The notes under the pieces were generated by a model that saw only the letters and a program-made list of their open reading frames with translations, searched no databases and had not been told where the DNA came from. This document shows, in pieces, positions 8,139-34,306 of a stretch of 64,000 nucleotides of DNA. The first letter of the stretch is position 1. Every line of letters starts with the position of its first letter. A program made the position numbers and the translations under genes. Source of the stretch: Escherichia coli (GTDB lineage: Bacteria; Pseudomonadota; Gammaproteobacteria; Enterobacterales; Enterobacteriaceae). The stretch lies in NCBI RefSeq assembly GCF_003018255.1, contig NZ_CP027440.1; one strand, given 5' to 3'.

Positions 8139-8172
8139 CACGGCTCCGTTATTGTTGTGTTTGCGTGTTTAC

Positions 8173-9105
8173 TTAATCTTTATAAATCGCGAAATGTTCT
8201 CGTGCGGCAATAAGCTGCTCTTTAGTGAGCATAAACACACCATCGCCGCCGTTATCAAACTCCAGCCAGGTGAACGGAACATCCGGATATTGTTCCATAA
8301 GATGTACCATGCTGTTGCCCACTTCACAAATCAGCACGCCATCATCAGCGAGGTAATCTGCCGCGTTACCAAGAATGCGACGCGTCAGTTTCAGGCCGTC
8401 AGTGCCAGATGCCAGACCGAGTTCCGGCTCGTGGCGGTATTCGTTTGGCAGGTCGGACATATCTTCCGCATCGACATACGGCGGGTTGGTGACAATCAGG
8501 TCGTACTGCACTTTCGGCAAATCACGGAACAAGTCGGAACGAATCGGAATGACGTTGTGGATCAAACCGTGTTCTTCGATGTTCTGTTCAGCAACCGCCA
8601 GCGCGTCGGGAGAGATGTCTACCGCGTCGACTTCCGCTTCCGGGAAGGCATAAGCACAGGCAATGGCGATGCAGCCGCTACCGGTACACATATCTAAAAT
8701 GTGCTGCGGTTGCTTGCTGATGAGTCCGGCAAATTTATTGTTGATCAGTTCACCAATCGGCGAGCGCGGCACCAGCACGCGTTCATCGACGTAAAATTCA
8801 TGGCCACAGAACCAGGCTTTATTGGTCAGGTAAGCCACCGGAATGCGTTCGTTGACGCGGCGGATCACGCGCTCAACAATACGGTGTTTTTCGCTGGAAG
8901 TCAGACGCGCGGTGCGCATATCTTCCGGAATATCCAGCGGCAGGTAGAGTGAAGGCAACACCAGTTGCACGGCTTCATCCCACGGGTTATCGGTGCCGTG
9001 GCCGTACCAGATATTCGCCGCGCTGAAGCGGCTCACCGACCAGCGCAACATGTCCTGAATGGTTTGCAGCTCATTTACTGCTTCATCAACGAAAATTTTA
9101 TCCAC
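8173..9105 (-). CDS. prmB: Ribosomal protein uL3 glutamine N5-methyltransferase PrmB
   Basis: Six-frame ORF is 421 aa; start placed at in-frame GTG (complement of 9103-9105) giving 310 aa (M)[12 protein letters not shown]...; NPPY motif present. Confidence 0.88.
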
Positions 9106-9822: not shown

Positions 9823-9937
9823 ATGCTGGCATCGAATGCTGTAGAGGGAAAGTTCGCCTTAGCCATCATATCATAAAACAGACGCCGGAAATGACGACAG
9901 GGCCAGATGGCCCCGTCGACTTGTGAAAATATCGTCA

Positions 9938-10780
9938 CTACAATTCATTCAGTACATACTGGAATCGGCACGTAGAATCAATCGGTTGTCGGCTACTGGT
10001 GTTCACATTTACCACGATATCATGTAGCTGTTTATCGGTTACCGGATGCCGTGTGGGAGAAACCGTTACCGTTGATTTATCGCAACCGTAGGAGGTAAAG
10101 GTTAACAGTTCCGAGACCACGCGGCAGTATGCACCTCTGCTATCAAAAACGCTGCCATCACAGAGTTTGCCATCTTCCATCAGGTAGGTCGAAAGCGTGG
10201 TGGTGATTGTCGAGCCATTGGATTGCAACTGTAACGCCTTATTGTGGCTGACGTAATTCTCACTCCACGAGATGTCATACGACGCGACAGGGATCGTCGG
10301 ACATACTGTGGCATGGTTCGTTGGCCCAGTATATCTCCCGAATCCGGGTTGATCTGTGATCGTATAAAAAGAAGCGAGCCACGGGCAACCATAACTGTCG
10401 GACTGAACGGTTATCTTAAACGTCTCATATGCACACTGAAATGTCGCCGTATTTATCCCAGGACAATTCGAGCTATCAGCATTACCGTAGTCAGTTAAGA
10501 TCAACACTGGCGCTGGTCCCGACCCCGTCCACGAAATAACGCTGGCTTGCTCGTTCTTCCTTATGGCATCGTTGTACACCCCATAGGCCGCCTCGTTGGG
10601 AGTTAACACCGTGACATACAAACCTCCGGTGTTATGAATAGACATTTTCCCCTTCCCATAATAAATCTTCACACTGTCGAAACTCGCGCTGGTGAGTTTA
10701 TCCCCGGCATAGCTCTTTGGAACGCTCGCACTCATCACCAGCAACACCAGGCTCGCAAAAATCATTGTCCATTTTTTCAT
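9938..10780 (-). CDS. yfcO: Fimbrial-type protein YfcO (putative tip adhesin of Yfc fimbriae)
   Basis: ORF 9938-10825; start placed at MKKWTMIFASLVLLVMSA (signal peptide) immediately after yfcP stop; last gene of fimbrial operon. Confidence 0.7.
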   Translation of the reverse strand: MKKWTMIFASLVLLVMSASVPKSYAGDKLTSASFDSVKIYYGKGKMSIHNTGGLYVTVLTPNEAAYGVYNDAIRKNEQASVISWTGSGPAPVLILTDYGNADSSNCPGINTATFQCAYETFKITVQSDSYGCPWLASFYTITDQPGFGRYTGPTNHATVCPTIPVASYDISWSENYVSHNKALQLQSNGSTITTTLSTYLMEDGKLCDGSVFDSRGAYCRVVSELLTFTSYGCDKSTVTVSPTRHPVTDKQLHDIVVNVNTSSRQPIDSTCRFQYVLNEL

Positions 10781-10781
10781 G

Positions 10782-11306
10782 TTAAAAATACTCAAAGGTT
10801 GCCGTCGCCGTAGCGCTGAAATCACCGGACGTCACATCCCGCCCGCCCTTCGCCTGTAGCCAGGCATTAAAATTGAGACTGTTATTGCCCTGGTTTAGCG
10901 GGAACGTGACACCCGTTGTGCTGTTGACTGGCACCGCCGCGCCTGCCGCCGTTTCAATACCAATCCCAGCTCCGGATGCAGAAGATGAGGCGTCAAAGGC
11001 CAGAAATCCGGGCAGTTCGCTATCTTCCGTTCCCGTCAGCGTTACCCTGACGCTAAACAGCGTGGAGCTTTTGCAATCCTTCAATTGAAATACCAACGGT
11101 ACTCGCTCTGACTGCCCGAGGTTCATTAAATCGCTGGCGGCAATGGTGGGAAAGTGCACCTCCGCCAACAGGCTACCGTTGATCACTGGCGTACAGGATT
11201 TACCGAGCAAATTACCGGTAAAGTGCAGGTTGTCGACCGCCGGGGCAGTAACGCTGTACAACAGCATCAGGCTACAGATAAAAACCAACGCACGCTTTTT
11301 CTTCAT
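10782..11306 (-). CDS. yfcP: Fimbrial minor subunit YfcP
   Basis: 174 aa ORF with signal peptide and C-terminal beta-strand motif (...FEYF) typical of pilin subunits. Confidence 0.75.
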   Translation of the reverse strand: MKKKRALVFICSLMLLYSVTAPAVDNLHFTGNLLGKSCTPVINGSLLAEVHFPTIAASDLMNLGQSERVPLVFQLKDCKSSTLFSVRVTLTGTEDSELPGFLAFDASSSASGAGIGIETAAGAAVPVNSTTGVTFPLNQGNNSLNFNAWLQAKGGRDVTSGDFSATATATFEYF

Positions 11307-11773
11307 TGATAATCCACCTGTAACGTGGCCCAGGCTTCAAAGTCTGCCTCAGGCAAATCGACACCGCTCTTTTTGACCGGTACTGCGGTTAACACCGGTA
11401 AGGCCGTTTCATTCACCACCAGTGCCGTATTGAGCTTAAAGCTCTGCCCTGCCTGTTTAAGCCGAATCGCCAGGCCAGAGATATCGGTGCTAACCGCGGC
11501 ATCGTCAAAGTCGCTCTGCGTACCGCTCCAGCTCAATTTCATTTCCATTGATGGGTCGCGAACCGCCGTATCACAGGTAATGGAATACGGCACGGTTTGC
11601 TCATAGTTACTGCCATTAATGTCATCAACAAAAACATCCTGAAAGGTTATTTCAATGGTTTTACCGTTGCTAATAGTGCAGTTAGGTGGCTGCACTAAAT
11701 AGCCGTGAAAAGAGACATTTGAGAGTGCCATCGAGCTAAAGCCCCACAGCATAAGAAGTGAGATCCGTTTCAT
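11303..11773 (-). CDS. yfcQ: Fimbrial minor subunit YfcQ
   Basis: 156 aa ORF with signal peptide, C-terminal ...VDYQ pilin-like terminus; overlapping stops/starts with neighbours. Confidence 0.75.
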   Translation of the reverse strand: MKRISLLMLWGFSSMALSNVSFHGYLVQPPNCTISNGKTIEITFQDVFVDDINGSNYEQTVPYSITCDTAVRDPSMEMKLSWSGTQSDFDDAAVSTDISGLAIRLKQAGQSFKLNTALVVNETALPVLTAVPVKKSGVDLPEADFEAWATLQVDYQ

Positions 11774-12276
11774 TGGTAATCCACCACAATTGTGGCACTG
11801 GCGTTAAATTCCGCTGCCGATAAGGTTGTACCACTCTGTTTCACCGGCACTGCTTCGAGTGCAGGGACGCCCGAGGAAAAATTAAACGGCAACCATGAAC
11901 CAGACGTTAAGTCGAGTGTTGAGTGATCACTACTTTTCTGAACCCGAATACCAAACCCTGAAATACCTGTGCTGATAACTGTTTCACCGTTGATCACAAC
12001 CGTTGTTGCCCGCATCTGTAAACGCAGGTCATCCATTGCCAGGTTGTTACAAACAAGCGAGTAATCAATGGGTTGTTTATAACCTACCCCATCGATCTTA
12101 TTGATGAATACATTACCAAACTCAACCGTCGCACCATTAACCGTGCAAGGAGGAGGGGCATCAACGAGCACTCGTAAACTCAAATTTACTGATTTACTCC
12201 CTGCAACTGCAAAGTCGCTACCAATACAACACATCAGTAACCATGTTCCCGCCCAGACTGAACAAGATCTTTTCAT
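11770..12276 (-). CDS. yfcR: Fimbrial minor subunit YfcR
   Basis: 168 aa ORF with signal peptide, C-terminal ...VDYQ pilin-like terminus. Confidence 0.75.
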   Translation of the reverse strand: MKRSCSVWAGTWLLMCCIGSDFAVAGSKSVNLSLRVLVDAPPPCTVNGATVEFGNVFINKIDGVGYKQPIDYSLVCNNLAMDDLRLQMRATTVVINGETVISTGISGFGIRVQKSSDHSTLDLTSGSWLPFNFSSGVPALEAVPVKQSGTTLSAAEFNASATIVVDYQ

Positions 12277-12292
12277 ACTTACTTCCCCGTCA

Positions 12293-13042
12293 TTAACCTT
12301 TGCGGCTCAGCTCTTCATCAACCTGACAACTGTTGCCGCTACAGGTGAAAAAGAGTGGCATCCGTGCGCCATAGTCGTTGACATAGGTCAGCACCGGCAC
12401 GCTAGCCATCTTCACCTTGAGCGGTGCGGAGGTTTTTGGCGACATCACTATCGGCGAGAAACCGTCTGCCGGATTGCCATTTTTTTGCGCGCTGGCATTA
12501 CTGAAAATGACGTAATACGGAGTAGGGTTATTGACGGTAAATTCCTGACCGTTACGGGTTAAGGTCACTTTATGCTGCCATGGGTTTTGCATGCTAGCTT
12601 TTTCCAGGGCTTTAGGTCGCCAGAAAAGTTTGATGCGTGTCTGCAGCGCAATTTGTAACGTATTGGCTTTGTTCGATTTCGGCGGAATTTCACGCACATT
12701 GAAATAAAATATCGATTCACGATCGGCAGGCAATTTATGGATATCTGGCAATCCCTGAATTTTCACCTGACCATTCATCATTGCATCAATGCGCTGTACG
12801 GGGGGCAATACTGCCAGCGGCGAACTAATCTTGACGCCCTTTTCATCTTCGATCCAGCTTTGTGCCAGATAAGGCTGTTTCGGGTCGTTATTACGCAGCG
12901 TGACGCTGATGGATTTATCGCTTTCATTAAAAATCAGGCGAGTACGATCGGGCGTTACTGACGCCAGAGCAGAAAAACTTACCGTTGCAGCCAGTAACGA
13001 CAGTACCGTTGCCAATGTTTTGACAGAGAGATGTTTAGTCAT
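12293..13042 (-). CDS. yfcS: Periplasmic fimbrial chaperone (PapD-like) YfcS
   Basis: 249 aa ORF with signal peptide and PapD-family features. Confidence 0.85.
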   Translation of the reverse strand: MTKHLSVKTLATVLSLLAATVSFSALASVTPDRTRLIFNESDKSISVTLRNNDPKQPYLAQSWIEDEKGVKISSPLAVLPPVQRIDAMMNGQVKIQGLPDIHKLPADRESIFYFNVREIPPKSNKANTLQIALQTRIKLFWRPKALEKASMQNPWQHKVTLTRNGQEFTVNNPTPYYVIFSNASAQKNGNPADGFSPIVMSPKTSAPLKVKMASVPVLTYVNDYGARMPLFFTCSGNSCQVDEELSRKG

Positions 13043-13061
13043 GGATCATTCCTTAATCACG

Positions 13062-15701
13062 TTATTGGTTCGATGAAACAGACATCGGCGGTTCCATTGG
13101 TGTCACCTGTTGTGTCTGCTCCTGAATTACAGGTTGAATATCATGCGTTATGACGGGAGCACTTCCCCCTTTTTGCTGGCATGGCAACAACAAGCCATTG
13201 AACAGGTCATTCGGTAACGGATCTGGCAGGCTGATATCGCAGTGAGATTCTCCCTCCCAGAAAACGGTCATATGTTCACCCGGCTTAACGCCTGCAAGAT
13301 AAACATTACCTTCGTCATCAACCAGCCCAACTTGTTGTTGATTATCGTTTTTCACTTCCGCCCCAAATGGCGGATGGCTGCCATCCTGCAAGCGCAGCAC
13401 TACCATCGCCTTCTCACCGCTGATCACCGCAAATTTACGGTAGCCAATAGCGCCTTCCGTCAGCGTTGCCTGGACCACCGATTGGGTAGCTTCGGCGTTT
13501 TCCGGTAGTTTGTTCAAATCGATATAAGCCTGGTTACGGTAGTAATCATTAACATCTGCCACCACCGCTTTCCCGAACATGTTGGTATAAACGGCGGAAC
13601 CATTACCTTCGACCGGCACATTAGCAACGCCATCGGCGTCGATTAGCAGACGTGTGCCTCCCATATTTTGCGTACGATGCAACGCCCCGCCGTGAGCAGT
13701 CAGTGTTACACCGCCCTGTAAGGAGACCCCCGCAGATGTGTATTGCCCCTCATGGTAGTTTGCACTCAGGTCAACTTTTGCCAGCGTACCGTCATGACTG
13801 TAATAACCATCAAGACTGGTGTGATTTTCACTGGTTCCGGCGCTCAACGTATAGTGGCTAGCGTCATCGATGCGGTGATACAAACTCGCCTGGCTGCTGT
13901 CGGCACCACTGCCATAATTGCCGTTGTAACTGATGGTGCTGTTGTCACCCCATGGCAAACTCAAGGACAGATAAACACCTTTGTCGGCACTTTTATCATA
14001 TTCGTAGCGATAACCGGTGAGAGAAACGCTCAGGTTGCGAAGACTTCCTAAATTGAAATAATGAGAAAGCATCATGTTGTAGTTGGTCTGATCCTCGCGA
14101 TCCCAATAGGTATGGTGAGAATAATTGAGATAGACCGAAACGCGCGCATCCCTAAAGTTCTGGTTGTAAGTGACCGTGTACATTTCCTTGTCGTTACCCG
14201 TGCGCGCACGGTCGGTGTCGTTCGCATCCAGATACTCACTCATGGTCATGTAGTTTTTTTCAGAGAAGCGATATCCGGCAAACGTCACCCGACTGTTGAG
14301 TTCATCGAAATCTTTGGCATAGCTGACGCGATAAGAGTTGCCGTCCAGCGTTTTGTTGCCATACACGCTGTTATCGTCGAGTTGAACACGAGAGTGAGTG
14401 ACATCAAACGCTAGCGCTCCGAACAGCGCGAGGTCACGACCGAGGCCTAACGCTGCCGACTGGTAGTTTTCATCGGCCAATGCCCCGCCGTAGAGCGACC
14501 AGCCATTCGCAATCCCCCATGACGCCTCACCGCCCGAGAAGAAGCTGCCTGCAACCTGATGGTCCCAGTTTTGTGGACGCCCCATTGTCACTTTGTAACG
14601 CACCTGACCGGGGCGGGTCAGAAACGGCATGGACGCCGTGCTGACGTCATATTCCTGTACCTGACCGTTTTGTTCTTCAATGCGGACATGCAGCGTGCCA
14701 GATACGGAATCGCCAATATCCTGAATGCGGAATGGACCTGCGGGCACCTGGGTTTCGTAAATGACACGGCCCATTTGGGTTACGGTCACTTTAGCGGTAG
14801 TGTGTGCAACGCCGGAAATATCGGGTGCGTAGCCGCGCATGTTTGGCGGTAACATTTGATCATCGGTACTGATGCTGCCGCCAATGTAACTGAAGCCATC
14901 AAAAATATCGGAGTTGAGATAATCTTCACCCAGCGAAAGTTTGGCTTTTAATGACGGCAAGGCGCGCCAGGCGTAGTAACGGCTCCACTCCCAGTTTTTT
15001 TGCGTACCGCTATCATCAGTGTCGCCGTCATCGTTACTGCGGGTATGTTGGTAATCGCTCTGCCAGTCGGCTCGTAAGCGCCACGGCCCCACGTTAACGC
15101 CGACCGTACCATTACCGCTGATGTCGTTAGTGTCATCCCCCCCATTTTCATGTCGGGTTTGTGCGTTGATACTGTAATCGGCAATAAGCCCAGGAATCCC
15201 CTCATCCCAACGCGAAGGTGGGTCCCAGTCATCGTCAGTGTATTCGAGATATGCCTGTGGCACAGAAACTAAGAGCGCAGATTGACTTAAATCGCCCTTA
15301 ATTTCCATACCTCCTATTTGGTCAGTTTTCAGACATTGTCCATCATGACCCCATTGCAAACTCTTCGCAAAATCATCTTTGAAGCCAAACTGGGCTATCA
15401 GTTCAGGTGGTAAGCAGGCATATGATTTATTCGGATCGTTTTCAGCTACATACCAATAGATATCGTATTCATCAGGTAATGGGTGATTATTTACATGAAC
15501 ACGTAAATTGTATTTCCCTGGTTCAACATACCCTTTTTGAGAAAAACGCCCCAGATCAATTTTGGTATTTCCTTTTAACTCCAGAAATCGAGCATCAAAT
15601 TGAATGGTATCATCTGCCAGTACATTAAAAGGACTCCCGGAAATTGCCAGAGCAATCCACCATGAAAGCCCCCGTAAACGAAGAAAAGAATGTTCAGGCA
15701 T
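13062..15701 (-). CDS. yfcU: Outer-membrane fimbrial usher, intact (879 aa)
   Basis: Single uninterrupted 879 aa ORF with usher-family composition and C-terminal domain; in K-12 the equivalent is split (yfcT/yfcU pseudogene). Confidence 0.85.
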   Translation of the reverse strand: MPEHSFLRLRGLSWWIALAISGSPFNVLADDTIQFDARFLELKGNTKIDLGRFSQKGYVEPGKYNLRVHVNNHPLPDEYDIYWYVAENDPNKSYACLPPELIAQFGFKDDFAKSLQWGHDGQCLKTDQIGGMEIKGDLSQSALLVSVPQAYLEYTDDDWDPPSRWDEGIPGLIADYSINAQTRHENGGDDTNDISGNGTVGVNVGPWRLRADWQSDYQHTRSNDDGDTDDSGTQKNWEWSRYYAWRALPSLKAKLSLGEDYLNSDIFDGFSYIGGSISTDDQMLPPNMRGYAPDISGVAHTTAKVTVTQMGRVIYETQVPAGPFRIQDIGDSVSGTLHVRIEEQNGQVQEYDVSTASMPFLTRPGQVRYKVTMGRPQNWDHQVAGSFFSGGEASWGIANGWSLYGGALADENYQSAALGLGRDLALFGALAFDVTHSRVQLDDNSVYGNKTLDGNSYRVSYAKDFDELNSRVTFAGYRFSEKNYMTMSEYLDANDTDRARTGNDKEMYTVTYNQNFRDARVSVYLNYSHHTYWDREDQTNYNMMLSHYFNLGSLRNLSVSLTGYRYEYDKSADKGVYLSLSLPWGDNSTISYNGNYGSGADSSQASLYHRIDDASHYTLSAGTSENHTSLDGYYSHDGTLAKVDLSANYHEGQYTSAGVSLQGGVTLTAHGGALHRTQNMGGTRLLIDADGVANVPVEGNGSAVYTNMFGKAVVADVNDYYRNQAYIDLNKLPENAEATQSVVQATLTEGAIGYRKFAVISGEKAMVVLRLQDGSHPPFGAEVKNDNQQQVGLVDDEGNVYLAGVKPGEHMTVFWEGESHCDISLPDPLPNDLFNGLLLPCQQKGGSAPVITHDIQPVIQEQTQQVTPMEPPMSVSSNQ

Positions 15702-15786
15702 CTACGTATCCATCCATGATTATTATAATTTAGTTATCTTTTATTTATAAACCCCATAACATTGCAGTTATGGGGGAACAGCATAA

Positions 15787-16353
15787 TTAGAGATATGTAA
15801 TCTGGAACGTCGTTAGCGTTTCAAACGGCGCTGGGGTTGGTGTTACCGCTGCAGTTTCACCTACTAACCAGGCTTTAAAGTTCAACGTTTGTTTCTGTTT
15901 GCCTTTTCCTGTTGAACTGTCCATCGCGATGTCCTGATCGATGCCTGCCCCCAGGTCATAACCAGTACCACGTTGGTCGCCAATCACCAGACTTACATTT
16001 GGAATTTCAGTTCCATTATCCATGTTAGACAGGGAATAGTTTTTTGAGTTGCCGGAGTACGGATTACCAGTGAATGTCGTGGTCATTGTCGTTTCAGTAT
16101 TGAAATTACAATCCTGTAAACGAATCTGGAAATCTTTAGGTGTGGTAGTCTTGCCACCGGTTAAAGAACCTGTACCAATGCTGCCCATATCCACTTCCAG
16201 TTTATGATCGTCAGGAACAATCGAGCACGGAGAGTCTTCAATTGTGCCGTAAAATCTCACTGTACCGTTGTTACCTGCGGCAACGACTGATGCTGAAGTC
16301 AGCGCCCCCATGAGCATTGCCGTGGCAACTGCTGCTTTTACAAACTTACTCAT
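15787..16353 (-). CDS. yfcV: Major fimbrial subunit YfcV
   Basis: 188 aa ORF with signal peptide, Cys pair, C-terminal ...FQITYL; first gene of operon. Confidence 0.8.
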   Translation of the reverse strand: MSKFVKAAVATAMLMGALTSASVVAAGNNGTVRFYGTIEDSPCSIVPDDHKLEVDMGSIGTGSLTGGKTTTPKDFQIRLQDCNFNTETTMTTTFTGNPYSGNSKNYSLSNMDNGTEIPNVSLVIGDQRGTGYDLGAGIDQDIAMDSSTGKGKQKQTLNFKAWLVGETAAVTPTPAPFETLTTFQITYL

Positions 16354-23394: not shown

Positions 23395-24150
23395 TTATTC
23401 AGAATCGATATCTTTTAAATCATCCTGAATCGCTTGCGCGTTCGGATTTTCCTGCGGTTTGAGTTCGCCGCCATTAGCGATGAAATCATGACGCTGGAAG
23501 TACGCTTCGCGCACCATAATATAAGGATCGGACGACTGACGCAGCAGACCATCGGAATCCAACAACTGCGCACGAGTTTCTATCCCTTCAAGCGTCCATT
23601 TACCCACAGACATCGGCCAGGTCAGCCAGGAAAGAACCGGGTAAAGACCATCCGCCATATCACCACCGTCATCACGCAGCGTGAAGCTACCGTAGAACGG
23701 TAACTGAACGTATGGCCCATAACCCACACCATAATGACCAAGCGTACTACCGAAGCGGTGAGGTTCAGTCCGTTGCAGTTTCGGGTTCGCCATCCCTGCA
23801 ACATCAATAAAGCCGCCCATCCCCAAAATGGTGTTCAGGAAAAAGCGGGTAAAGTGGACCATCCCCTGATAAGGGTCGCCCTGCAAGAAGTAGTTAACCA
23901 TCACCGCAGGTTCTTCAAGGTTGCCAGTAAAGTTGCTCAAACCGTTACGCGCCGGTTGCGGAACATAATCACGCCAGGCGACAGCGACCGGTCGAACAAT
24001 ATACGGGTCTAATACATTGAAATTGAAGTTGTACATGGTGCGGTTGAACCCTTCTAGCGGGTCAGAACGCCCTTGCTGATCTGTACCGGAACTCGCACAC
24101 CCCACCAGAAGCGTAGTTCCCAGAGCAAGCGCCGACAGGCGAAGCTTCAT
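23395..24150 (-). CDS. mlaA: Outer-membrane lipoprotein MlaA (VacJ), phospholipid asymmetry maintenance
   Basis: 251 aa ORF with lipobox (LLVGC), recognised sequence. Confidence 0.93.
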   Translation of the reverse strand: MKLRLSALALGTTLLVGCASSGTDQQGRSDPLEGFNRTMYNFNFNVLDPYIVRPVAVAWRDYVPQPARNGLSNFTGNLEEPAVMVNYFLQGDPYQGMVHFTRFFLNTILGMGGFIDVAGMANPKLQRTEPHRFGSTLGHYGVGYGPYVQLPFYGSFTLRDDGGDMADGLYPVLSWLTWPMSVGKWTLEGIETRAQLLDSDGLLRQSSDPYIMVREAYFQRHDFIANGGELKPQENPNAQAIQDDLKDIDSE

Positions 24151-24443
24151 AAATGTCTCCCTGTTTTTTTATGGCTTATGCAGTTTGCCATCCATGACGG
24201 AACGATACCGTATCCGCCTGTTTAGGTGTGGGCGATTGTAACAGCACGTCAACTGATGTCCAGACGCCCTGATTTGCTGATTTGATCATAGCCTGGTAAT
24301 CGCCGCCCTGTAGGCTACTTGATTCTATAGAAACAGAAAAAGGCAAACGCAGCCTTTTCTACATTTTCAGAGTAACTCCCGCCAGTTGCGAGCAAAAAAG
24401 CCGCTACGCTTTAGCTATACGTGCTAATTCAAGAGAAGAGACC

Positions 24444-25376
24444 ATGGACAACGACAAAATTGATCAACACAGCGACGAAATTGAAGTTGAGAGCGAAGAA
24501 AAAGAGCGCGGCAAAACAATAGAAATAGATGAAGATCGACTCCCCTCCCGGGCGATGGCAATTCATGAGCATATCCGCCAGGATGGTGAAAAAGAGCTGG
24601 AACGCGACGCAATGGCACTACTGTGGTCAGCCATTGCGGCGGGTCTGTCGATGGGCGCTTCGCTACTGGCAAAAGGGATATTTCATGTCGAACTGGAAGG
24701 CGTGCCGGGCAGCTTCTTGCTGGAGAATCTCGGTTATACCTTTGGTTTTATTATCGTCATTATGGCCCGCCAGCAATTATTTACCGAAAACACCGTGACT
24801 GCGGTACTACCCGTCATGCAAAAACCGACAATGAGCAACGTTGGCTTACTTATGCGGTTATGGGGCGTCGTGCTGCTGGGTAATATTCTCGGGACAGGTA
24901 TTGCGGCGTGGGCATTTGAATATATGCCAATCTTCAATGAAGAAACTCGCGATGCATTTGTCAAAATCGGCATGGATGTGATGAAGAACACCCCCAGCGA
25001 GATGTTTGCCAACGCGATCATTTCCGGCTGGCTGATCGCCACTATGGTTTGGATGTTTCCTGCAGCGGGTGCGGCAAAGATTGTGGTGATTATATTGATG
25101 ACCTGGCTTATTGCCCTGGGTGACACCACTCACATCGTTGTCGGTTCTGTTGAAATCCTCTATCTGGTGTTTAACGGTACGCTGCACTGGAGCGATTTCA
25201 TCTGGCCCTTCGCACTACCTACTTTAGCGGGGAACATCTGCGGCGGCACCTTTATCTTCGCGTTAATGAGTCATGCACAGATCCGTAACGACATGAGCAA
25301 CAAGCGCAAAGCAGAAGCACGCCAAAAAGCAGAACGTGCGGAAAACATTAAGAAAAATGATAAAAACCCGGCATAA
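24444..25376 (+). CDS. yfdC: Formate/nitrite transporter family inner membrane protein YfdC
   Basis: 310 aa ORF, recognised sequence and synteny upstream of argW. Confidence 0.9.
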   Translation: MDNDKIDQHSDEIEVESEEKERGKTIEIDEDRLPSRAMAIHEHIRQDGEKELERDAMALLWSAIAAGLSMGASLLAKGIFHVELEGVPGSFLLENLGYTFGFIIVIMARQQLFTENTVTAVLPVMQKPTMSNVGLLMRLWGVVLLGNILGTGIAAWAFEYMPIFNEETRDAFVKIGMDVMKNTPSEMFANAIISGWLIATMVWMFPAAGAAKIVVIILMTWLIALGDTTHIVVGSVEILYLVFNGTLHWSDFIWPFALPTLAGNICGGTFIFALMSHAQIRNDMSNKRKAEARQKAERAENIKKNDKNPA

Positions 25377-25451
25377 ATGGCGAGGGTTTAAGCAATCGAG
25401 CGGCAGCGTACTTACCCCGCAGTCCATTAGCGGGTATACTCATGCCGCATT

Positions 25452-25526
25452 GTCCTCTTAGTTAAATGGATATAACGAGCCCCTCCTAAGGGCTAATTGC
25501 AGGTTCGATTCCTGCAGGGGACACCA
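25452..25526 (+). tRNA. argW: tRNA-Arg (anticodon CCU)
   Basis: 75-nt sequence GTCCTCTTAGTTAAATGGATATAACGAGCCCCTCCTAAGGGCTAATTGCAGGTTCGATTCCTGCAGGGGACACCA; cloverleaf with CCT anticodon loop, T-loop GGTTCGATTCC. Confidence 0.95.
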
Positions 25527-25735
25527 GATACCCTTCAAACCAAATCTACCTTCACCCCGTAAAAGATGGGTTTGGCAGCACACTTGCCCTATATCTACTC
25601 ATTTTTACTGCAACAGGTTGAAATCTCAGCACTGTCAGAAAGCGCTGATGACTAAACAGCCCTGGGCCGGGCGATGTAACCATCATACAGAATCCTGATA
25701 GCGAAATATGGCGTGACTCGATACTTCACTCTGCA

Positions 25736-25888
25736 ATGCATTCCTTGATGAATTCGCAGGCCCGTGATACACGGGACACGTGGCTGAATGACGACAATGT
25801 CCTGGAAATCAGCGAACCGCGTATCCGGAGTACATTTGAGCGACTGTACCAGAACATGAATGAGGCGTTTGGATTAGGTGATTATTAG
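25736..25888 (+). other. Short unassigned ORF (50 aa) / possible gene remnant adjacent to argW
   Basis: Open frame with internal ATG 25736 ending TAG 25886-25888; frame is open back to 25652 and an out-of-frame ATG at 25648 precedes it, suggesting a degraded or frameshifted gene; below the 60 aa cutoff of the ORF track. Confidence 0.2.
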
Positions 25889-25967
25889 CAGGGGTAAGCA
25901 TTTTTGTATTATTATTTTCCGGTTGAGGGATATGGAGATATCGACAACAACCGGAAAAAGTTTACGT

Positions 25968-27215
25968 CTATATTGCTGAAGGTACAGGCGTTTCCATAAC
26001 TATTTGCTCGCGTTTTTTACTCAGGAAGAAAATGCCAAATAGCAACATCAGGCAGACAATACCCGAAATTGCGAAGAAAACTGTCTGGTAGCCTGCGTGG
26101 TCAAAGAGTATCCCAGTCGGCGTTGAAAGCAGCACAATCCCAAGCGAACTGGCAATTTGAAAACCAATCAGAAAGATCGTCGACGACAGGCGCTTATCAA
26201 AGTTTGCCACGCTGTATTTGAAGACGGATATGACACAAAGTGGAACCTCAATGGCATGTAACAGCTTCACTAATGAAATAATCCAGGGGTTAACGAACAG
26301 CGCGCAGGAAAGGATACGCAACGCCATAATCACAACACCGATAAGTAATGCATTTTTTGGCCCTACCCGATTCACAAAGAAAGGAATAATCGCCATGCAC
26401 AGCGCTTCGAGTACCACCTGGAATGAGTTGAGATAACCATACAGGCGCGTTCCTACATCGTGTGATTCGAATAAACCTGCATAAAAGACAGGAAAGAGTT
26501 GTTGATCAAAAATGTTATAGAAAGACCACGTCCCCACAATAAATATGACAAAAACCCAGAAGTTTCGATCCTTGAAAACTGCGATAAAATCCTCTTTTTT
26601 TACCCCTCCCGCATCCGCCGCTATGCACTGGTGATCCTTATCTTTAAAACGCATGTTGATCATCATAAATACAGCGCCAAATAGCGAGACCAACCAGAAG
26701 TTGATATGGGGACTGATACTAAAAAATATACCAGCAAAGAACGCGCCAATAGCATAGCCAAAAGATCCCCAGGCGCGCGCTGTTCCATATTCGAAATGAA
26801 AATTTCGCGCCATTTTTTCGGTGAAGCTGTCAAGCAAACCGCATCCCGCCAGATACCCCAGGCCAAAAAAGAGCGCCCCCAGAATTAGACCTACAGAAAA
26901 ATTGCTTTGCAGTAACGGTTCATAAACGTAAATCATAAACGGTCCGGTCAAGACCAGAATGAAACTCATACACCAGATGAGCGGTTTCTTCAGACCGAGT
27001 TTATCCTGAACGATGCCGTAGAACATCATAAATAGAATGCTGGTAAACTGGTTGACCGAATAAAGTGTACCTAATTCCGTCCCTGTTAATCCTAGATGTC
27101 CTTTCAGCCAAATAGCGTATAACGACCACCACAGCGACCAGGAAATAAAAAAGAGAAATGAGTAACTGGATGCAAAACGATAGTACGCATTTCTGAATGG
27201 AATATTCAGTGCCAT
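25968..27215 (-). CDS. cscB: Sucrose:H+ symporter (MFS, oligosaccharide/H+ symporter family)
   Basis: 415 aa ORF with 12-TM composition, recognised CscB sequence. Confidence 0.93.
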   Translation of the reverse strand: MALNIPFRNAYYRFASSYSFLFFISWSLWWSLYAIWLKGHLGLTGTELGTLYSVNQFTSILFMMFYGIVQDKLGLKKPLIWCMSFILVLTGPFMIYVYEPLLQSNFSVGLILGALFFGLGYLAGCGLLDSFTEKMARNFHFEYGTARAWGSFGYAIGAFFAGIFFSISPHINFWLVSLFGAVFMMINMRFKDKDHQCIAADAGGVKKEDFIAVFKDRNFWVFVIFIVGTWSFYNIFDQQLFPVFYAGLFESHDVGTRLYGYLNSFQVVLEALCMAIIPFFVNRVGPKNALLIGVVIMALRILSCALFVNPWIISLVKLLHAIEVPLCVISVFKYSVANFDKRLSSTIFLIGFQIASSLGIVLLSTPTGILFDHAGYQTVFFAISGIVCLMLLFGIFFLSKKREQIVMETPVPSAI

Positions 27216-27286
27216 AATTACCTGCCTGTCGTTAAAAAATTCATGTCCTATTTAGAGATAAGAGCGGCCTCGCCGTTTACTTCTCA

Positions 27287-28201
27287 CTATTCCAGTTCTT
27301 GTCGACATGGCAGCGCTGTCATCGCCCCTTTCGCCGTTACTGCAAGCGCTCCGCAACGTTGAGCGAGATCGATAATTCGTCGCATTTCTCTTTCATCTGT
27401 AGATAATCCCGTAGAGGACAGACCTGTGAGTAACCCGGCAACGAACGCATCTCCCGCCCCCGTGCTATCGACACAATTCACAGACATTCCAGCAAAATGG
27501 TGAACTTGTCCTCGATAACAGACCACCACCCCTTCTGCACCTTTAGTCACCAACAGCATGGCGATCTCATACTCTTTTGCCAGGGCGCATATATCCCAAT
27601 CGTTCTGTGTTTTTCCACTGATAAGTCGCCATTCTTCTTCCGAGAGCTTGACGACATCCGCCAGTTGTAGCGCCTGCCGCAAACACAAGCGGAGCAAATG
27701 CTCGTCTTGCCATAGATCTTCACGAATATTGGGATCGAAGCTGACAAAACCTCCGGCATGCCGGATCGCCGTCATCGCAGTAAATGCGCTGGTACGCGAA
27801 GGCTCGGCAGACAACGCAATTGAACAGAGATGTAACCATTCGCCATGTCGCCAGCAGGGCAAGTCTGTCGTCTCTAAAAAAAGATCGGCACTGGGGCGGA
27901 CCATAAACGTAAATGAACGTTCTCCTTGATCGTTCAGATCGACAAGCACCGTGGATGTCCGGTGCCATTCATCTTGCTTCAGATACGTGATATCGACACC
28001 CTCAGTTAGCAGCGTTCTTTGCATTAACGCACCAAAAGGATCATCACCGACCCGACCTATAAACCCACTTGTTCCGCCTAATCTGGCGATTCCCACCGCA
28101 ACGTTAGCTGGCGCGCCGCCAGGACAAGGTAGTAGCCGCCCGTCTGATTCTGGCAAGAGATCTACGACCGCATCCCCTAAAACCCATACTTTGGCTGACA
28201 T
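27287..28201 (-). CDS. cscK: Fructokinase (ROK/pfkB-family sugar kinase of csc regulon)
   Basis: 304 aa ORF with pfkB-family motifs (GG..N, DSTGAGDAF). Confidence 0.93.
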   Translation of the reverse strand: MSAKVWVLGDAVVDLLPESDGRLLPCPGGAPANVAVGIARLGGTSGFIGRVGDDPFGALMQRTLLTEGVDITYLKQDEWHRTSTVLVDLNDQGERSFTFMVRPSADLFLETTDLPCWRHGEWLHLCSIALSAEPSRTSAFTAMTAIRHAGGFVSFDPNIREDLWQDEHLLRLCLRQALQLADVVKLSEEEWRLISGKTQNDWDICALAKEYEIAMLLVTKGAEGVVVCYRGQVHHFAGMSVNCVDSTGAGDAFVAGLLTGLSSTGLSTDEREMRRIIDLAQRCGALAVTAKGAMTALPCRQELE

Positions 28202-28306
28202 TTTTTTCCCTTAAATTCATCTGACTTACGCATAGTGATAAACCTCTTTTTCGCAAAATCGTCATGGATTTACTAAAACATGCATATTCGATCACAAAAC
28301 GTCATA

Positions 28307-28318
28307 GTTAACGTTAAC
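28307..28318. promoter_or_regulatory. Perfect 12-bp palindrome GTTAACGTTAAC, candidate CscR operator (site 1)
   Basis: Read directly in the cscK-cscA divergent intergenic region; identical copy 64 bp downstream. Confidence 0.5.
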
Positions 28319-28370
28319 ATTTGTGATATTCATCGCATTTATGAAAGTAAGGGACTTTATTTTTATAAAA

Positions 28371-28382
28371 GTTAACGTTAAC
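28371..28382. promoter_or_regulatory. Perfect 12-bp palindrome GTTAACGTTAAC, candidate CscR operator (site 2)
   Basis: Identical to site 1, about 35 bp upstream of cscA start. Confidence 0.5.
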
Positions 28383-28416
28383 AATTCACCCAATTTGCTT
28401 AACCAGGATGATAAAA

Positions 28417-29850
28417 ATGACGCAATCTCGATTACATGCGGCGCAAAACGCACTAGCAAAACTTCACGAGCGCCGAGGTAACACTTTCTATCCCCATTTT
28501 CACCTCGCGCCTCCCGCCGGGTGGATGAACGATCCAAACGGCCTAATCTGGTTTAACGATCGTTATCACGCGTTTTATCAACATCACCCGATGAGCGAAC
28601 ACTGGGGGCCAATGCACTGGGGACATGCCACCAGCGACGATATGATCCACTGGCAGCATGAGCCTATTGCGCTAGCGCCAGGAGACGAGAATGACAAAGA
28701 CGGGTGTTTTTCAGGTAGTGCTGTCGATGACAATGGTGTCCTCTCACTTATCTACACCGGACACGTCTGGCTCGATGGTGCAGGTAATGACGATGCAATT
28801 CGCGAAGTACAATGTCTGGCTACCAGTCGGGATGGTATTCATTTCGAGAAACAGGGTGTGATCCTCACTCCACCAGAAGGCATCATGCACTTCCGCGATC
28901 CTAAAGTGTGGCGTGAAGCCGACACATGGTGGATGGTAGTCGGGGCGAAAGATCCAGGCAACACGGGGCAGATCCTGCTTTATCGCGGCAGTTCATTGCG
29001 TGAATGGACTTTCGATCGCGTACTGGCCCACGCTGATGCGGGTGAAAGCTATATGTGGGAATGTCCGGACTTTTTCAGCCTTGGCGATCAGCATTATCTG
29101 ATGTTTTCCCCGCAGGGAATGAATGCCGAGGGATACAGTTACCGAAATCGCTTTCAAAGTGGCGTAATACCCGGAATGTGGTCGCCAGGACGACTTTTTG
29201 CACAATCCGGGCATTTTACTGAACTTGATAGCGGGCATGACTTTTATGCACCACAAAGCTTTTTAGCGAAGGATGGTCGGCGTATTGTTATCGGCTGGAT
29301 GGATATGTGGGAATCGCCAATGCCCTCAAAACGTGAAGGCTGGGCAGGCTGCATGACGCTGGCGCGCGAGCTATCAGAGAGCAATGGCAAACTTCTACAA
29401 CGCCCGGTACACGAAGCTGAGTCGTTACGCCAGCAGCATCAATCTATCTCTCCCCGCACAATCAGCAATAAATATGTTTTGCAGGAAAACGCGCAAGCAG
29501 TTGAGATTCAGCTGCAGTGGGCGTTGAAGAACAGTGATGCCGAACATTACGGATTACAGCTCGGCACTGGAATGCGGCTGTATATTGATAACCAATCTGA
29601 GCGACTTGTTTTGTGGCGGTATTACCCACACGAGAATTTAGATGGCTACCGTAGTATTCCCCTCCCGCAGGGTGACATGCTCGCCCTAAGGATATTTATC
29701 GATACATCATCCGTGGAAGTATTTATTAACGACGGGGAGGCGGTGATGAGTAGCCGAATATATCCGCAGCCAGAAGAACGGGAACTGTCGCTCTATGCCT
29801 CCCACGGAGTGGCTGTGCTGCAACATGGAGCACTCTGGCAACTGGGTTAA
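28417..29850 (+). CDS. cscA: Sucrose-6-phosphate hydrolase / invertase (GH32)
   Basis: ORF 28408-29850; start placed at MTQSRLHAAQN; GH32 N-terminal motif WMNDPNG present. Confidence 0.93.
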   Translation: MTQSRLHAAQNALAKLHERRGNTFYPHFHLAPPAGWMNDPNGLIWFNDRYHAFYQHHPMSEHWGPMHWGHATSDDMIHWQHEPIALAPGDENDKDGCFSGSAVDDNGVLSLIYTGHVWLDGAGNDDAIREVQCLATSRDGIHFEKQGVILTPPEGIMHFRDPKVWREADTWWMVVGAKDPGNTGQILLYRGSSLREWTFDRVLAHADAGESYMWECPDFFSLGDQHYLMFSPQGMNAEGYSYRNRFQSGVIPGMWSPGRLFAQSGHFTELDSGHDFYAPQSFLAKDGRRIVIGWMDMWESPMPSKREGWAGCMTLARELSESNGKLLQRPVHEAESLRQQHQSISPRTISNKYVLQENAQAVEIQLQWALKNSDAEHYGLQLGTGMRLYIDNQSERLVLWRYYPHENLDGYRSIPLPQGDMLALRIFIDTSSVEVFINDGEAVMSSRIYPQPEERELSLYASHGVAVLQHGALWQLG

Positions 29851-29857
29851 CATAATA

Positions 29858-30853
29858 TCAGGTGGAACAACGGATCAACAGCGGGCAAGGGATCCGCGTC
29901 ACTCTTCCCCCTTCACGATCTTCAATAATATGCAATGCAGCTTCCCGCCCGATAATGTCATGTGGAAGCTGAATTGTGGTCAGCGGCGGTAAAAACAGAT
30001 GCCCGACGCCAACCAGATTATCAAAGCCCATTACGGCGACATCCTGCGGGATACGTACCCCCTTCGCCAGGAGAACCTGATAAGCGACAAAGGCTGCGCG
30101 ATCGTTACCACATATCAGAACATCAAAATCTGGTTTGCCCGATTTGAAGTGGTCATTGAGTAAACTTGCGAGATCGGTGTAGTGATCATCACCTGTTGCC
30201 ATGTGAAATTGTTTCACCTCAGCCAGATCTCGTCCAGCATCACGCCAGGCCTGCTCAAATCCCTGCCGACGATACCCTGTTGCCAACGCACTTTCCGGTA
30301 GCCAGAAGCATAACGGTTGACGATAGCCCGCCGCGAGCAAATGCTGTGTTGATTCATATTGTGCAGTGTAATCATCAGGGATATAACTGGGTAACGCTGG
30401 GTCATCCGCCACACAGTTCGCCAATACAATATTTTCACCATACAGAGACTCAGGCAGCGAGATATGTCGCAGCCCCATTGTAGTATAGATAATGCCATCC
30501 GGACGGTGGGCAAGCAGCTGACGTGCCGCGCGGGCAGCGTCATCTTCAGAAAAAATATTGATTAAAAAACTATTCCAGCCAAACTCGCTGGCGGTTTGCT
30601 CAATGGCAAGCAGAATATCAACAGAGAAAGGAGTGGTGGCCGTGTCCTGCGCCAGCACGGCGAGAGTCGACGGCTTACGTCCTTGAGCGCGCATCTTACG
30701 GGCGGAAAGATCAGGAACATAATTCAGGGTCTGGATTGCCTGCAATACGCGGTCACGCGTTGCAGGACGCACAGATTCTGCATTATGCATCACCCGGGAG
30801 ACTGTCATCATCGACACTCCCGCCAGGCGTGCGACATCCTTTAATGAAGCCAT
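29858..30853 (-). CDS. cscR: LacI-family sucrose operon repressor
   Basis: Six-frame ORF is 397 aa; start placed at internal Met giving 331 aa MASLKDVARLAGVSMMTVSRV (LacI-type HTH at the N-terminus). Confidence 0.9.
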   Translation of the reverse strand: MASLKDVARLAGVSMMTVSRVMHNAESVRPATRDRVLQAIQTLNYVPDLSARKMRAQGRKPSTLAVLAQDTATTPFSVDILLAIEQTASEFGWNSFLINIFSEDDAARAARQLLAHRPDGIIYTTMGLRHISLPESLYGENIVLANCVADDPALPSYIPDDYTAQYESTQHLLAAGYRQPLCFWLPESALATGYRRQGFEQAWRDAGRDLAEVKQFHMATGDDHYTDLASLLNDHFKSGKPDFDVLICGNDRAAFVAYQVLLAKGVRIPQDVAVMGFDNLVGVGHLFLPPLTTIQLPHDIIGREAALHIIEDREGGRVTRIPCPLLIRCST

Positions 30854-31083
30854 ACCCAAGCCGTTTGCCGTAAAACGGGCACTGTAGCAGAAACAGACGT
30901 CACTGGCGAGATCCAACGATATTCTCAACGCCCTATCACCCGACACGGCAATACAATAAAAAATAACAATAATTCCCGGACAATTGTACCCAATTCCGCC
31001 TCTGTTCTCGCCAACGAGTAACCATGTAGGCAAGTAGGTAAAACATGCCAACTGGCATCGCCAACCTGGAGAAGAAAATATAA

Positions 31084-31314
31084 ATATGGATCATTGTGCT
31101 GCCGCTGTATCCCGACATCAGTCCGGAAATTATTGCGATTGCTATCGGTTCAGGTGCGATTGGCTGCACGATCGTTACGGACTCGCTTTTCTGGCTGGTG
31201 AAGCAATATTGCGGCGCTACGCTCAATGAAACATTTAAATACTATACGACAGCGACATTTATCGCTTCAGTCGTCGCTCTGGCGGGCACATTCCTGCTGT
31301 CATTTATCATCTAA
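31084..31314 (+). pseudogene. dsdX: 3' remnant of D-serine permease gene dsdX (GntP family), truncated at the csc cassette boundary
   Basis: Open frame of about 76 codons ending 18 bp before dsdA; hydrophobic C-terminal TM segment consistent with DsdX C-terminus; no full-length permease ORF upstream. Confidence 0.75.
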
Positions 31315-31331
31315 GCGCAAAGAGACGTACT

Positions 31332-32663
31332 ATGGAAAACGCTAAAATGAACTCGCTCATCGCCCAGTATCCGTTGGTAAAGGATCTGGTTGCTCTTAAA
31401 GAAACCACCTGGTTTAATCCTGGCACGACCTCATTGGCTGAAGGTTTACCTTATGTTGGCCTGACCGAACAGGATGTTCAGGACGCCCATGCGCGCTTAT
31501 CCCGTTTTGCACCCTATCTGGCAAAAGCATTTCCTGAAACTGCTGCTACTGGGGGGATTATTGAATCAGAACTGGTTGCCATTCCGGCTATGCAAAAACG
31601 GCTGGAAAAGGAATATCAACAACCGATCAGCGGGCAACTGCTACTGAAAAAAGATAGCCATTTGCCCATTTCCGGCTCCATAAAAGCACGCGGCGGGATT
31701 TATGAAGTCCTGGCACATGCAGAAAAACTGGCTCTGGAAGCGGGGTTGCTGACGCTTGAAGATGACTACAGCAAACTGCTTTCTCCGGAGTTTAAACAGT
31801 TCTTTAGTCAATACAGCATTGCTGTGGGCTCAACCGGAAATCTGGGGTTATCAATCGGCATTATGAGCGCCCGCATTGGCTTTAAGGTGACAGTACATAT
31901 GTCTGCTGATGCCCGGGCATGGAAAAAAGCGAAACTGCGCAGCCATGGCGTTACGGTCGTGGAATATGAGCAAGATTATGGTGTTGCAGTCGAGGAAGGA
32001 CGTAAAGCAGCGCAATCTGACCCGAACTGTTTCTTTATTGATGACGAGAATTCCCGCACGTTGTTCCTTGGGTATTCCGTCGCTGGCCAGCGTCTTAAAG
32101 CGCAATTTGCCGAGCAAGGTCGTATTGTCGATGCTGATAACCCTCTGTTTGTCTATCTGCCGTGTGGTGTTGGCGGTGGTCCTGGTGGCGTCGCATTCGG
32201 GCTTAAACTGGCATTTGGCGATCATGTTCACTGCTTTTTTGCCGAACCAACGCACTCCCCTTGTATGCTGTTAGGCGTCCATACAGGATTACACGATCAG
32301 ATTTCTGTTCAGGATATTGGTATCGATAACCTTACCGCAGCGGATGGCCTTGCAGTTGGTCGCGCATCAGGCTTTGTCGGGCGGGCAATGGAGCGTTTAC
32401 TGGATGGCTTCTATACCCTTAGCGATCAAACCATGTATGACATGCTTGGCTGGCTGACGCAGGAAGAAGGTATTCGTCTTGAACCTTCGGCACTGGCGGG
32501 TATGGCCGGACCTCAGCGCGTGTGTGCATCAGTAAGTTACCAACAGATGCACGGTTTCAGCGCAGAACAACTGCATAATGCCACTCATCTGGTGTGGGCG
32601 ACGGGAGGTGGAATGGTGCCGGAAGAAGAGATGGAGCAATATCTGGCAAAAGGCCGTTCATAA
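31332..32663 (+). CDS. dsdA: D-serine ammonia-lyase (D-serine dehydratase)
   Basis: 443 aa [22 protein letters not shown]..., PLP-lysine region SGSIKARGG. Confidence 0.95.
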
Positions 32664-32767
32664 CGTTTCAACGCAGCATCGCCATCCTTTCCCTGGGTGA
32701 GCGATGCTGCCGATGGCGCAGACTTAAGATCCCCGGTCTTACCTGCTATAATTCTCTCTTTATACCA

Positions 32768-34306
32768 TCACCCAACGCCTTTCGCTGTAAACGGCGGTTT
32801 CGCAAACCAAACCAATACCGTAAGTAAGATAAAAGCAATAGCCGCCATACGGAAAATCTCATTTGCAGAAATTGAAAGTGACTGCTGAGTTATTTCATTA
32901 TTAATTTCATTAAGAACTCCTGAAAGCGAACCATAGTATTTATCCATAATTTGTGACGATGAATTAAATACGGGGTTAAATTGATCGATGGTTGCTGTCA
33001 ACTGACTATGGTGTAACGATTCGCGTCGTCCCCACAGCGTCATTGTCAACGACGTACCAACTGATCCTGACAAGGTACGAAAAAAATTACTCATACTCGA
33101 GGCATTGGCAAATTTATTATCTGGCAACCCTGAAAACGAAATCGTTGTTAAGGGTAAAAAGAAACAGGCAACGGCGAATCCCTGGAAAAACTGTGGCAAA
33201 ATGATGCCTGTAAAATCAATCGTTGGCATAAATGTCACAGAACGCCAGTAATAGCAAACCGCATACATCAAAAAACTAAATGTCACCAACAACCGCATAT
33301 CAATTTTGTTGCCATAACGTCCTATCAAAGGTGATATTAATAGCGGCATGATGCCGATGGGCGCATAGGCAAGTCCGGCCCATATCGCATTATACCCCAT
33401 CGTTTCCTGGAGTAACTGCGGCATAAGGACTATCGCCCCAGAGTAAAATAAATACGCGCATGTGATACTCACAATACCAATGGTGAAATTACGGGACTTA
33501 AACAAACTGAGATCAAGAATCGGATTCTCTGAGGTCGACTCCCAAATGACTAAAGAAATCAGAGAAATAACTGACACTACTGTTAGTATTATTATTGTAC
33601 TCGAGTTGAACCAATCCAGATCGCGCCCTTTATCAAGCATTATCTGCAAGCCACCAACACCGAGCACTAACAGGGTCAGTCCTGGTAGATTCATTTTGAC
33701 CGGTGAAGTCTCAGTTTCTCTTCCTTTAAGTAAGGTTAAGCATAATGTCAGAACGATAATCCCCATAGGGACATTGATTAAAAATATCCAACCCCAGCTA
33801 AAGTTATCGCAAATATAGCCGCCCAATATCGGCCCACATATCGGAGCGATAATTACGGTCATTGACCATAATGCCAAAGCAAATGTTCTTTTTTCTGGCG
33901 GATAATTCCTTAATAATAAACTCTGTGACAGTGGAATTAACGGCCCCGCCATTAAGCCCTGAACGACTCTAAAAAATATCAGCACATCAAGATTGGTCGA
34001 TAGGCTACACATTAATGAAGATAGTGAAAAAAAGGTTACTGAAAGTAAAAATAATCTTAATTCGCCTATTCTTTGTGCCAGCCTGCCGGTAACAGGGATC
34101 GCAATGGCATTTGCTACGCCAAACGAAGTGATAACCCAGGTGCCTTCGTCTGTTGATGCTCCCAGAAAGCCAGATATTGTCGGTATTGCGACGTTAGAAA
34201 TAGTGGAATCCAACATTTGCATAAACGTCGCTAAGGACAATGCAATAGTAACGCACCATAACGTCCCACCGGTTAATGGTGCCGGAGTTGATTTAGTGAT
34301 TGCCAT
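32768..34306 (-). CDS. emrY: MFS multidrug efflux pump EmrY (EmrB paralogue)
   Basis: 512 aa 14-TM-type ORF, recognised sequence. Confidence 0.93.
   Translation of the reverse strand: MAITKSTPAPLTGGTLWCVTIALSLATFMQMLDSTISNVAIPTISGFLGASTDEGTWVITSFGVANAIAIPVTGRLAQRIGELRLFLLSVTFFSLSSLMCSLSTNLDVLIFFRVVQGLMAGPLIPLSQSLLLRNYPPEKRTFALALWSMTVIIAPICGPILGGYICDNFSWGWIFLINVPMGIIVLTLCLTLLKGRETETSPVKMNLPGLTLLVLGVGGLQIMLDKGRDLDWFNSSTIIILTVVSVISLISLVIWESTSENPILDLSLFKSRNFTIGIVSITCAYLFYSGAIVLMPQLLQETMGYNAIWAGLAYAPIGIMPLLISPLIGRYGNKIDMRLLVTFSFLMYAVCYYWRSVTFMPTIDFTGIILPQFFQGFAVACFFLPLTTISFSGLPDNKFANASSMSNFFRTLSGSVGTSLTMTLWGRRESLHHSQLTATIDQFNPVFNSSSQIMDKYYGSLSGVLNEINNEITQQSLSISANEIFRMAAIAFILLTVLVWFAKPPFTAKGVG

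Follow-up and report, generated by a model that had tools for sequence, protein, structure and literature searches.

A common csc-type allele of the Escherichia coli argW-dsd region with an intact but probably cryptic dsdA

The stretch of DNA analysed here, which has a length of 64,000 nucleotides and is referred to as the window, is ordinary Escherichia coli chromosome running from yfcJ to mntH. The features relevant to its D-serine locus are collected in Table 1, with annotation based on the RefSeq entry of strain JNE23-011, which is 100% identical over positions 29800-32800. All four csc genes, namely, cscB, cscK, cscA and cscR (25968-30853), are intact and adjoin argW, and they are followed by a fragment of the permease gene dsdX, hereafter dsdX', and by dsdA. 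The annotation of cscA, at 7618-9051 of the JNE23-011 locus, corresponds to 28417-29850 of the window. The longest open reading frame of cscA starts at 28408, and a gap of 7 bp separates the convergent cscA and cscR genes. The latter, which encodes the repressor of cscBKA (PMC7486766), is divergent from dsdX'-dsdA.

Table 1. Features of the window around the csc island and the dsd locus.
Feature	Coordinates	Strand	Evidence or remark
yfdC	24444-25376	+	
argW, tRNA-Arg(CCT)	25452-25526	+	ARAGORN and annotation; left edge of the variable island
DUF4942 fragment (50 aa)	25736-25888	+	
cscB, sucrose:H+ symporter (MFS, 415 aa)	25968-27215	-	TIGR00882 oligosaccharide MFS transporter, 594.6 bits
cscK, fructokinase (304 aa)	27287-28201	-	NF006957, 505.9 bits
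cscA, sucrose-6-phosphate hydrolase / invertase (477 aa as annotated)	28417-29850	+	TIGR01322, 478 bits
cscR, LacI-family repressor of csc genes (331 aa)	29858-30853	-	LacI-family matches; annotated intact
cscR upstream spacer and right end of csc island	30854-31096	.	K-12 alignment loses homology left of 31097
dsdX' stub, pseudogene fragment	31096-31314	+	NF007395 DsdX profile; annotated 'incomplete; missing N-terminus'
dsdA, D-serine ammonia-lyase (443 aa)	31332-32663	+	TIGR02035
emrY	32768-34306	-	
emrK, then evgA and evgS	from 34306	-, then +	

Only 441 bp (25527-25967) lie between argW and the stop codon of cscB, and these hold the DUF4942 fragment. There is no prophage at argW in the window; in the K-12-type locus, CPS-53/KpLE1 genes (yfdP to torI) are found beside dsdC. 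Elsewhere in the window, between smrB and sixA, positions 9936-16351 contain a complete yfc-type chaperone-usher fimbrial operon (adhesin, three minor subunits, chaperone, usher and major subunit), in which nothing unusual was seen.

The product of dsdA matched the TIGR02035 D-serine ammonia-lyase equivalog with 811.8 bits, against a cut-off of 368.25, along the entire profile (positions 1-431 of 431). It is identical to a K-12-like DsdA at 436 of 442 residues (99%), without gaps, and it has the PLP-binding Lys118, within the motif SGSIKARGG. This full-length match above the curated cut-off, together with the PLP-binding lysine, places the protein among the DsdA enzymes of PLP fold-type II, and bears out an earlier reading of these letters alone, hereafter the sequence-only reading, which had described the D-serine dehydratase as intact. 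The window's DsdA has 443 rather than 442 residues because a TCA (Ser) codon stands at the place of the K-12 stop codon TAA, with a TAA directly after it (32655-32663). The variant with the extra C-terminal Ser is common to the csc+ strain 3347558 and the dsd+ strain 98203, and the changes private to the allele in the window are A376T and R415H. An intact dsdA was also found in all of the csc+ genomes sampled (7/7).

Of dsdX, only the 3' end is left. Positions 31096-31311 encode 72 amino acids, which correspond to positions 374-445 of the 445-position DsdX model, followed by a stop codon (to 31314), and a tblastn search of the 64-kb window with K-12 DsdX recovered residues 374-445 only. The fragment scored 146 bits against a cut-off of 618, short of what a functional DsdX, a GntP-family permease of about 445 residues, should reach; the lost part comprises 373 codons (1-373). 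Alignment with the K-12-type locus places the breakpoint between 31096 and 31097, with ...GGATCATTG to its left and TGCTGCCGCTG... to its right. DNA homology with K-12 thus starts at 31097, and the ATG of K-12 codon 374 is GTG here. The start at 31084 given by the sequence-only reading lies 12-13 bp too far to the left, and the ATG at 31086 opens an ORF of 47 residues in a frame that differs from that of the stub. To the right of the breakpoint, dsdA is preceded by 235 bp of native DNA (31097-31331), which departs from K-12 at 4 positions, all of them outside the final 134 bp, and the 17-bp dsdX-dsdA spacer has the same length as in K-12.

The gene of the activator, dsdC, was not found in the 64-kb window by tblastn (best E = 0.51), nor was the 217-bp K-12 dsdC-dsdX control region, for which blastn-short returned only 11-12-mer chance matches. 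Within the window, then, both dsdC and the DsdC-dependent dsdX promoter are absent. The claim that the LysR-type activator gene and most of the transporter gene have gone holds on both counts.

To place this arrangement in the species, we compared positions 29800-32800 with 5426 complete E. coli genomes, 5399 of which matched at least part of the query. The segment cscA'-cscR-dsdX'-dsdA is spanned in one piece (>=80% of 29800-32800) in 2660 of the 5426 genomes, and the remaining matching genomes align only from query position 1298 onward, that is, from window position 31097, the breakpoint itself. The K-12 segment consisting of dsdC and the 5' part of dsdX is present in 2770 genomes, and the csc-dsdX' and dsdC-dsdX sets are nearly complementary. 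The exchange of dsdC and most of dsdX for csc genes is a known polymorphism, found in about half of sequenced E. coli, and is not specific to one strain, a point that the sequence-only reading had missed. At the base level, the junction is identical in 7/7 csc+ genomes compared, which come from different hosts and continents and include O157:H7, so that dsdX is cut in the window where it is cut in O157:H7 and the other csc+ strains; the stub has 219 bp in all seven, where annotation lists it as a pseudogene lacking its N-terminus. Since both the junction and the length of the stub are identical in these seven genomes, a single ancestral event is the likely origin.

The alleles of dsdA tell a different part of this history, as similarity among them tracks lineage rather than csc/dsd status. 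The dsdA of the csc+ strain ET479 is the K-12-type dsdA of dsd+ strains (0/1326 differences), and that of the csc+ strain AREA486 is 5 bases away from the dsd+ strain SFAD3. Because dsdA alleles follow lineage while the junction is constant, the csc allele appears to have moved among lineages by homologous recombination, which agrees with the published role of argW as a hotspot of integration and recombination (PMC4366372, PMC11251922). Close relatives of the segment are few: identity of >=99% over 29800-32800 was found in 7/5399 matching genomes, and the best match after the 100% one reaches 98.7%, which suggests that the source lineage is sparsely sampled. The exact match, JNE23-011, is a human isolate from Japan with a genome of 4.76 Mb.

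The csc genes between argW and dsdA are arranged and oriented as in known csc-type loci, and every sequence-level feature that defines the csc-type argW-dsd allele is found in the window. The arrangement with an orphan dsdA is thus real but ordinary, and already known. Chromosomal sucrose and D-serine use were reported to be mutually exclusive by Alaeddinoglu and Charles 1979, and molecular descriptions of the swap are credited to Jahreis et al. 2002 and Moritz and Welch 2006. What the swap means for niche adaptation was addressed by Connolly et al. 2015, 2016, and the reactivation of the cryptic gene by O'Boyle et al. 2020 (PMC7486766). The swap has been reported for EDL933 and most LEE+ strains (PMC4366372, PMC4699771) and for E. 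coli W (PMC3032704).

The closest comparison is with the argW-csc/dsd locus of O157:H7 EDL933, which has the same order, argW-cscB-cscK-cscA-cscR-dsdX'-dsdA-emrY, the same 219-bp stub and a base-identical breakpoint; O157:H7 MB9-1 aligns over 29800-32800 in one piece at 98.5%. The differences are allelic only, namely, a few positions in the spacer and, in DsdA, A376T, R415H and a length of 443 rather than 442 residues. E. coli W (ATCC 9637) and EC3132 (Bockmann 1992; Archer et al. 2011, PMC3032704) likewise have csc between the argW region and dsdX, and E. coli W, compared here by its published description, has lost D-serine utilisation (PMC3032704). However, E. coli W has a lambdoid prophage remnant at argW (PMC3032704), where the window has the short argW-cscB interval with its DUF4942 fragment. 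The canonical dsdCXA locus, as in K-12 and UPEC CFT073, shares with the window dsdA, the 3' end of dsdX and the downstream emrYK-evgAS genes, whereas in the window csc stands in place of dsdC, the divergent dsdC/dsdX control region and dsdX codons 1-373.

The sequence-only reading had left two ways open for dsdA: either it is silent, or it is expressed from a new upstream promoter, by read-through or from the cscR-dsdX junction, for which promoter prediction over 30854-31331 was proposed as a check. A consensus scan of this interval revealed no sigma-70 consensus site on the + strand. Relaxing the scan yielded 5 weak matches at 8/12 positions, as compared with 2.6 +/- 1.7 in shuffled sequences, which is not above chance. 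A TCGCCA/TATAAA pair seen by eye was rejected, as its spacer is 15 bp and the scan did not recover the pair. Read-through from cscR is ruled out by geometry, given that this gene lies on the minus strand and points away from dsdA. Transcription could in principle reach dsdA from cscA across the antisense cscR, but the wild-type reporters in the literature are low. Thus, the divergent cscR, the lack of a good sigma-70 match in the interval and the low wild-type reporters of EHEC all speak against a new promoter or read-through at the junction. A weak internal promoter, 'dsdAp', has been placed in the literature 115 bp before the dsdA ATG, and any such weak promoter would be retained in the window, because the 235 bp before dsdA are still native and the last 134 bp of them are unchanged.

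Experiments published on this architecture point to the first of these ways. Strains with dsdCXA transcribe dsdX and dsdA together, under induction by DsdC with D-serine (PMC7486766, PMC4699771). EHEC TUV93-0 does not grow on D-serine and is inhibited by it in M9-glucose (PMC7486766); EHEC accumulates D-serine, and dsdA provided in trans restores growth (PMC4699771). Wild-type gfp fusions from cscAp or z3622p to codon 6 of dsdA gave 63-134 RFU in EHEC, compared with 2001 RFU, and a 33-fold increase in dsdA mRNA, for a cscA-cscR deletion fusing dsdA to cscAp, and with 257 RFU for a deletion placing dsdA under z3622p (PMC7486766). These activating deletions were spontaneous and removed cscR, so that D-serine catabolism was gained and sucrose use was lost; dsdA was activated only by deletions bringing in the cscA or the z3622 promoter, and CscR itself does not repress dsdA, a gene termed 'previously nonfunctional' in EHEC (PMC7486766). 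The same swap has cost E. coli W its use of D-serine (PMC3032704), and among human gut isolates this trait was found to be 'strictly associated' with the dsd locus (PMC13054288). The silent branch of the sequence-only reading is supported by the low wild-type dsdA reporters and the failure of EHEC to grow on D-serine. Its suggestion that D-serine handling is altered, in a way linked to niche, is backed by O157:H7 EDL933/TUV93-0, E. coli W and the gut isolates (PMC7486766, PMC4366372, PMC4699771, PMC3032704, PMC13054288).

Taken together with these published strains, which have an identical junction, the window very probably carries the common csc-type allele of the argW-dsd region, with a dsdA that is functional but essentially silent, that is, cryptic. 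An ancestral recombination would have put cscBKAR in place of dsdC, the dsdC-dsdX control region and dsdX codons 1-373, and the resulting allele would then have spread among E. coli lineages. From this event dsdA has come out with its coding sequence, ribosome-binding site and native upstream DNA, and without the DsdC- and D-serine-dependent dsdX promoter from which the dsdXA operon is normally transcribed; it is because of this loss that the gene is expected to be essentially silent. Some basal DsdA may nevertheless be made, as the EHEC wild-type reporter is low and not zero. The source strain, judged from strains with the same architecture, should be sucrose-positive and D-serine-non-utilising, and D-serine entering by other carriers (CycA, SstT, YhaO) would accumulate in the cell. 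Deletions that remove cscR and bring in either the promoter of cscA or that of the gene preceding argW could re-awaken dsdA.

This last prediction may be compared with the evolved EHEC strains LCV2 and LCV10B (PMC7486766), which had the same starting architecture, the window being its unrearranged wild-type form; the same route of reactivation, by a deletion spanning cscR that brings in cscAp or the z3622 promoter, should therefore be open. In LCV10B, the dsdA-activating deletion of 5.6 kb was mediated by an 8-bp direct repeat, CCGGATAA (PMC7486766). One of the two copies of this repeat reads CCGGACAA in the window, at 30976-30983 upstream of cscR, and exact CCGGATAA was not found anywhere in 24001-31400. 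From the reported distances, z3622 is taken to be yfdC of the window, in which case the LCV10B deletion would also have removed argW.

Other readings of the locus have to be weighed against a cryptic dsdA. One of them is that dsdA is transcribed constitutively at a low but useful level, from 'dsdAp' in the stub or from the AT-rich end of the island, which would allow trickle detoxification independent of DsdC and so explain the intact reading frame. The conserved native DNA before dsdA, with only 4 substitutions relative to K-12 in its 235 bp and none in its last 134 bp, would fit such a promoter, as would EHEC wild-type reporters above zero (PMC7486766), the intact dsdA of 7/7 csc+ genomes, and a tolerance of mM D-serine in MEM-HEPES that is better in EHEC than in a UPEC dsdA mutant (PMC4699771). 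However, EHEC accumulates D-serine and cannot grow on it until dsdA is supplied in trans (PMC4699771), D-serine is a strong inhibitor of its growth in M9-glucose (PMC7486766), promoter-like sequence in 30854-31331 is not above chance, and allele exchange with dsd+ strains can account for the intact reading frames, as the K-12 dsdA of ET479 illustrates. We thus regard useful low-level expression as unlikely.

We consider it very unlikely that D-serine catabolism is supplied by a second, complete dsdCXA elsewhere in the genome, as in many K1/NMEC strains. Some genomes do have 2-3 places for dsdA and as many as 2 for dsdC-dsdX, and two-copy strains such as NMEC CE10 are known (PMC7486766). Nevertheless, JNE23-011, the only genome 100% identical over 29800-32800, has no second dsdA place, each of the 15/15 csc+ genomes among the matches listed has a single one, and dsdC-like sequence was not found in the 64-kb window; even if DsdC were supplied in trans, the copy in the window is without the DsdC-dependent promoter. 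As for the truncation being a private deletion or an assembly artefact, this is conceivable a priori, but scarcely credible for a junction that recurs in 2660 complete genomes of diverse host and geographic origin and is base-identical in the seven compared, which for practical purposes rules it out.

A cryptic dsdA raises the question of why the gene is intact. It may be speculated that dsdA is maintained by selection in csc+ strains, either as a standby gene that can be re-armed or for a basal role independent of DsdC, although we hold this to be unlikely. Pairwise dN/dS of dsdA is 0.059 among the seven csc+ genomes and 0.043 among dsd+ genomes. The csc+ value would agree with ongoing selection, but it does not discriminate, as alleles are shared between the two backgrounds. 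Private synonymous and nonsynonymous substitutions, respectively, number 8:4 in csc+ and 15:3 in dsd+ genomes, a small sample with few counts. Were the standby version true, encounters with D-serine would bring dsdA back into use again and again, through deletion or recombination.

In functional terms, the csc/dsd switch trades the catabolism of D-serine, an asset in urine and at extraintestinal sites, for the use of sucrose, and in LEE-positive pathogens it couples exposure to D-serine with repression of type III secretion. By analogy, the source strain is predicted to be sensitive to D-serine as well as sucrose-positive and unable to use D-serine. The value of this assignment lies in annotation and typing and not in discovery, as nothing in it goes beyond publications from 1979-2020.

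Minor variation was also observed around the junction. The spacer between cscR and dsdX' (30850-31065) is prone to indels in other strains, namely, a 12-bp deletion in CFS3273, a 13-bp deletion in AREA486 that takes out GCCAACTGGCATC, one arm of a small hairpin at 31045-31066, and a 7-bp duplication (CCATACC) in CV261 that abuts the cscR start codon. In strain 3347558 (L006, positions 1797-1860, homologous to window 31097-31155), the first 58 bp of the stub have 5 private substitutions, each of which alters the encoded residue (P to A, I to F, A to T, A to D and G to S), as compared with at most one private substitution in each of the other stubs. These changes reflect either local decay of a pseudogene or a small patch of recombination or repair.
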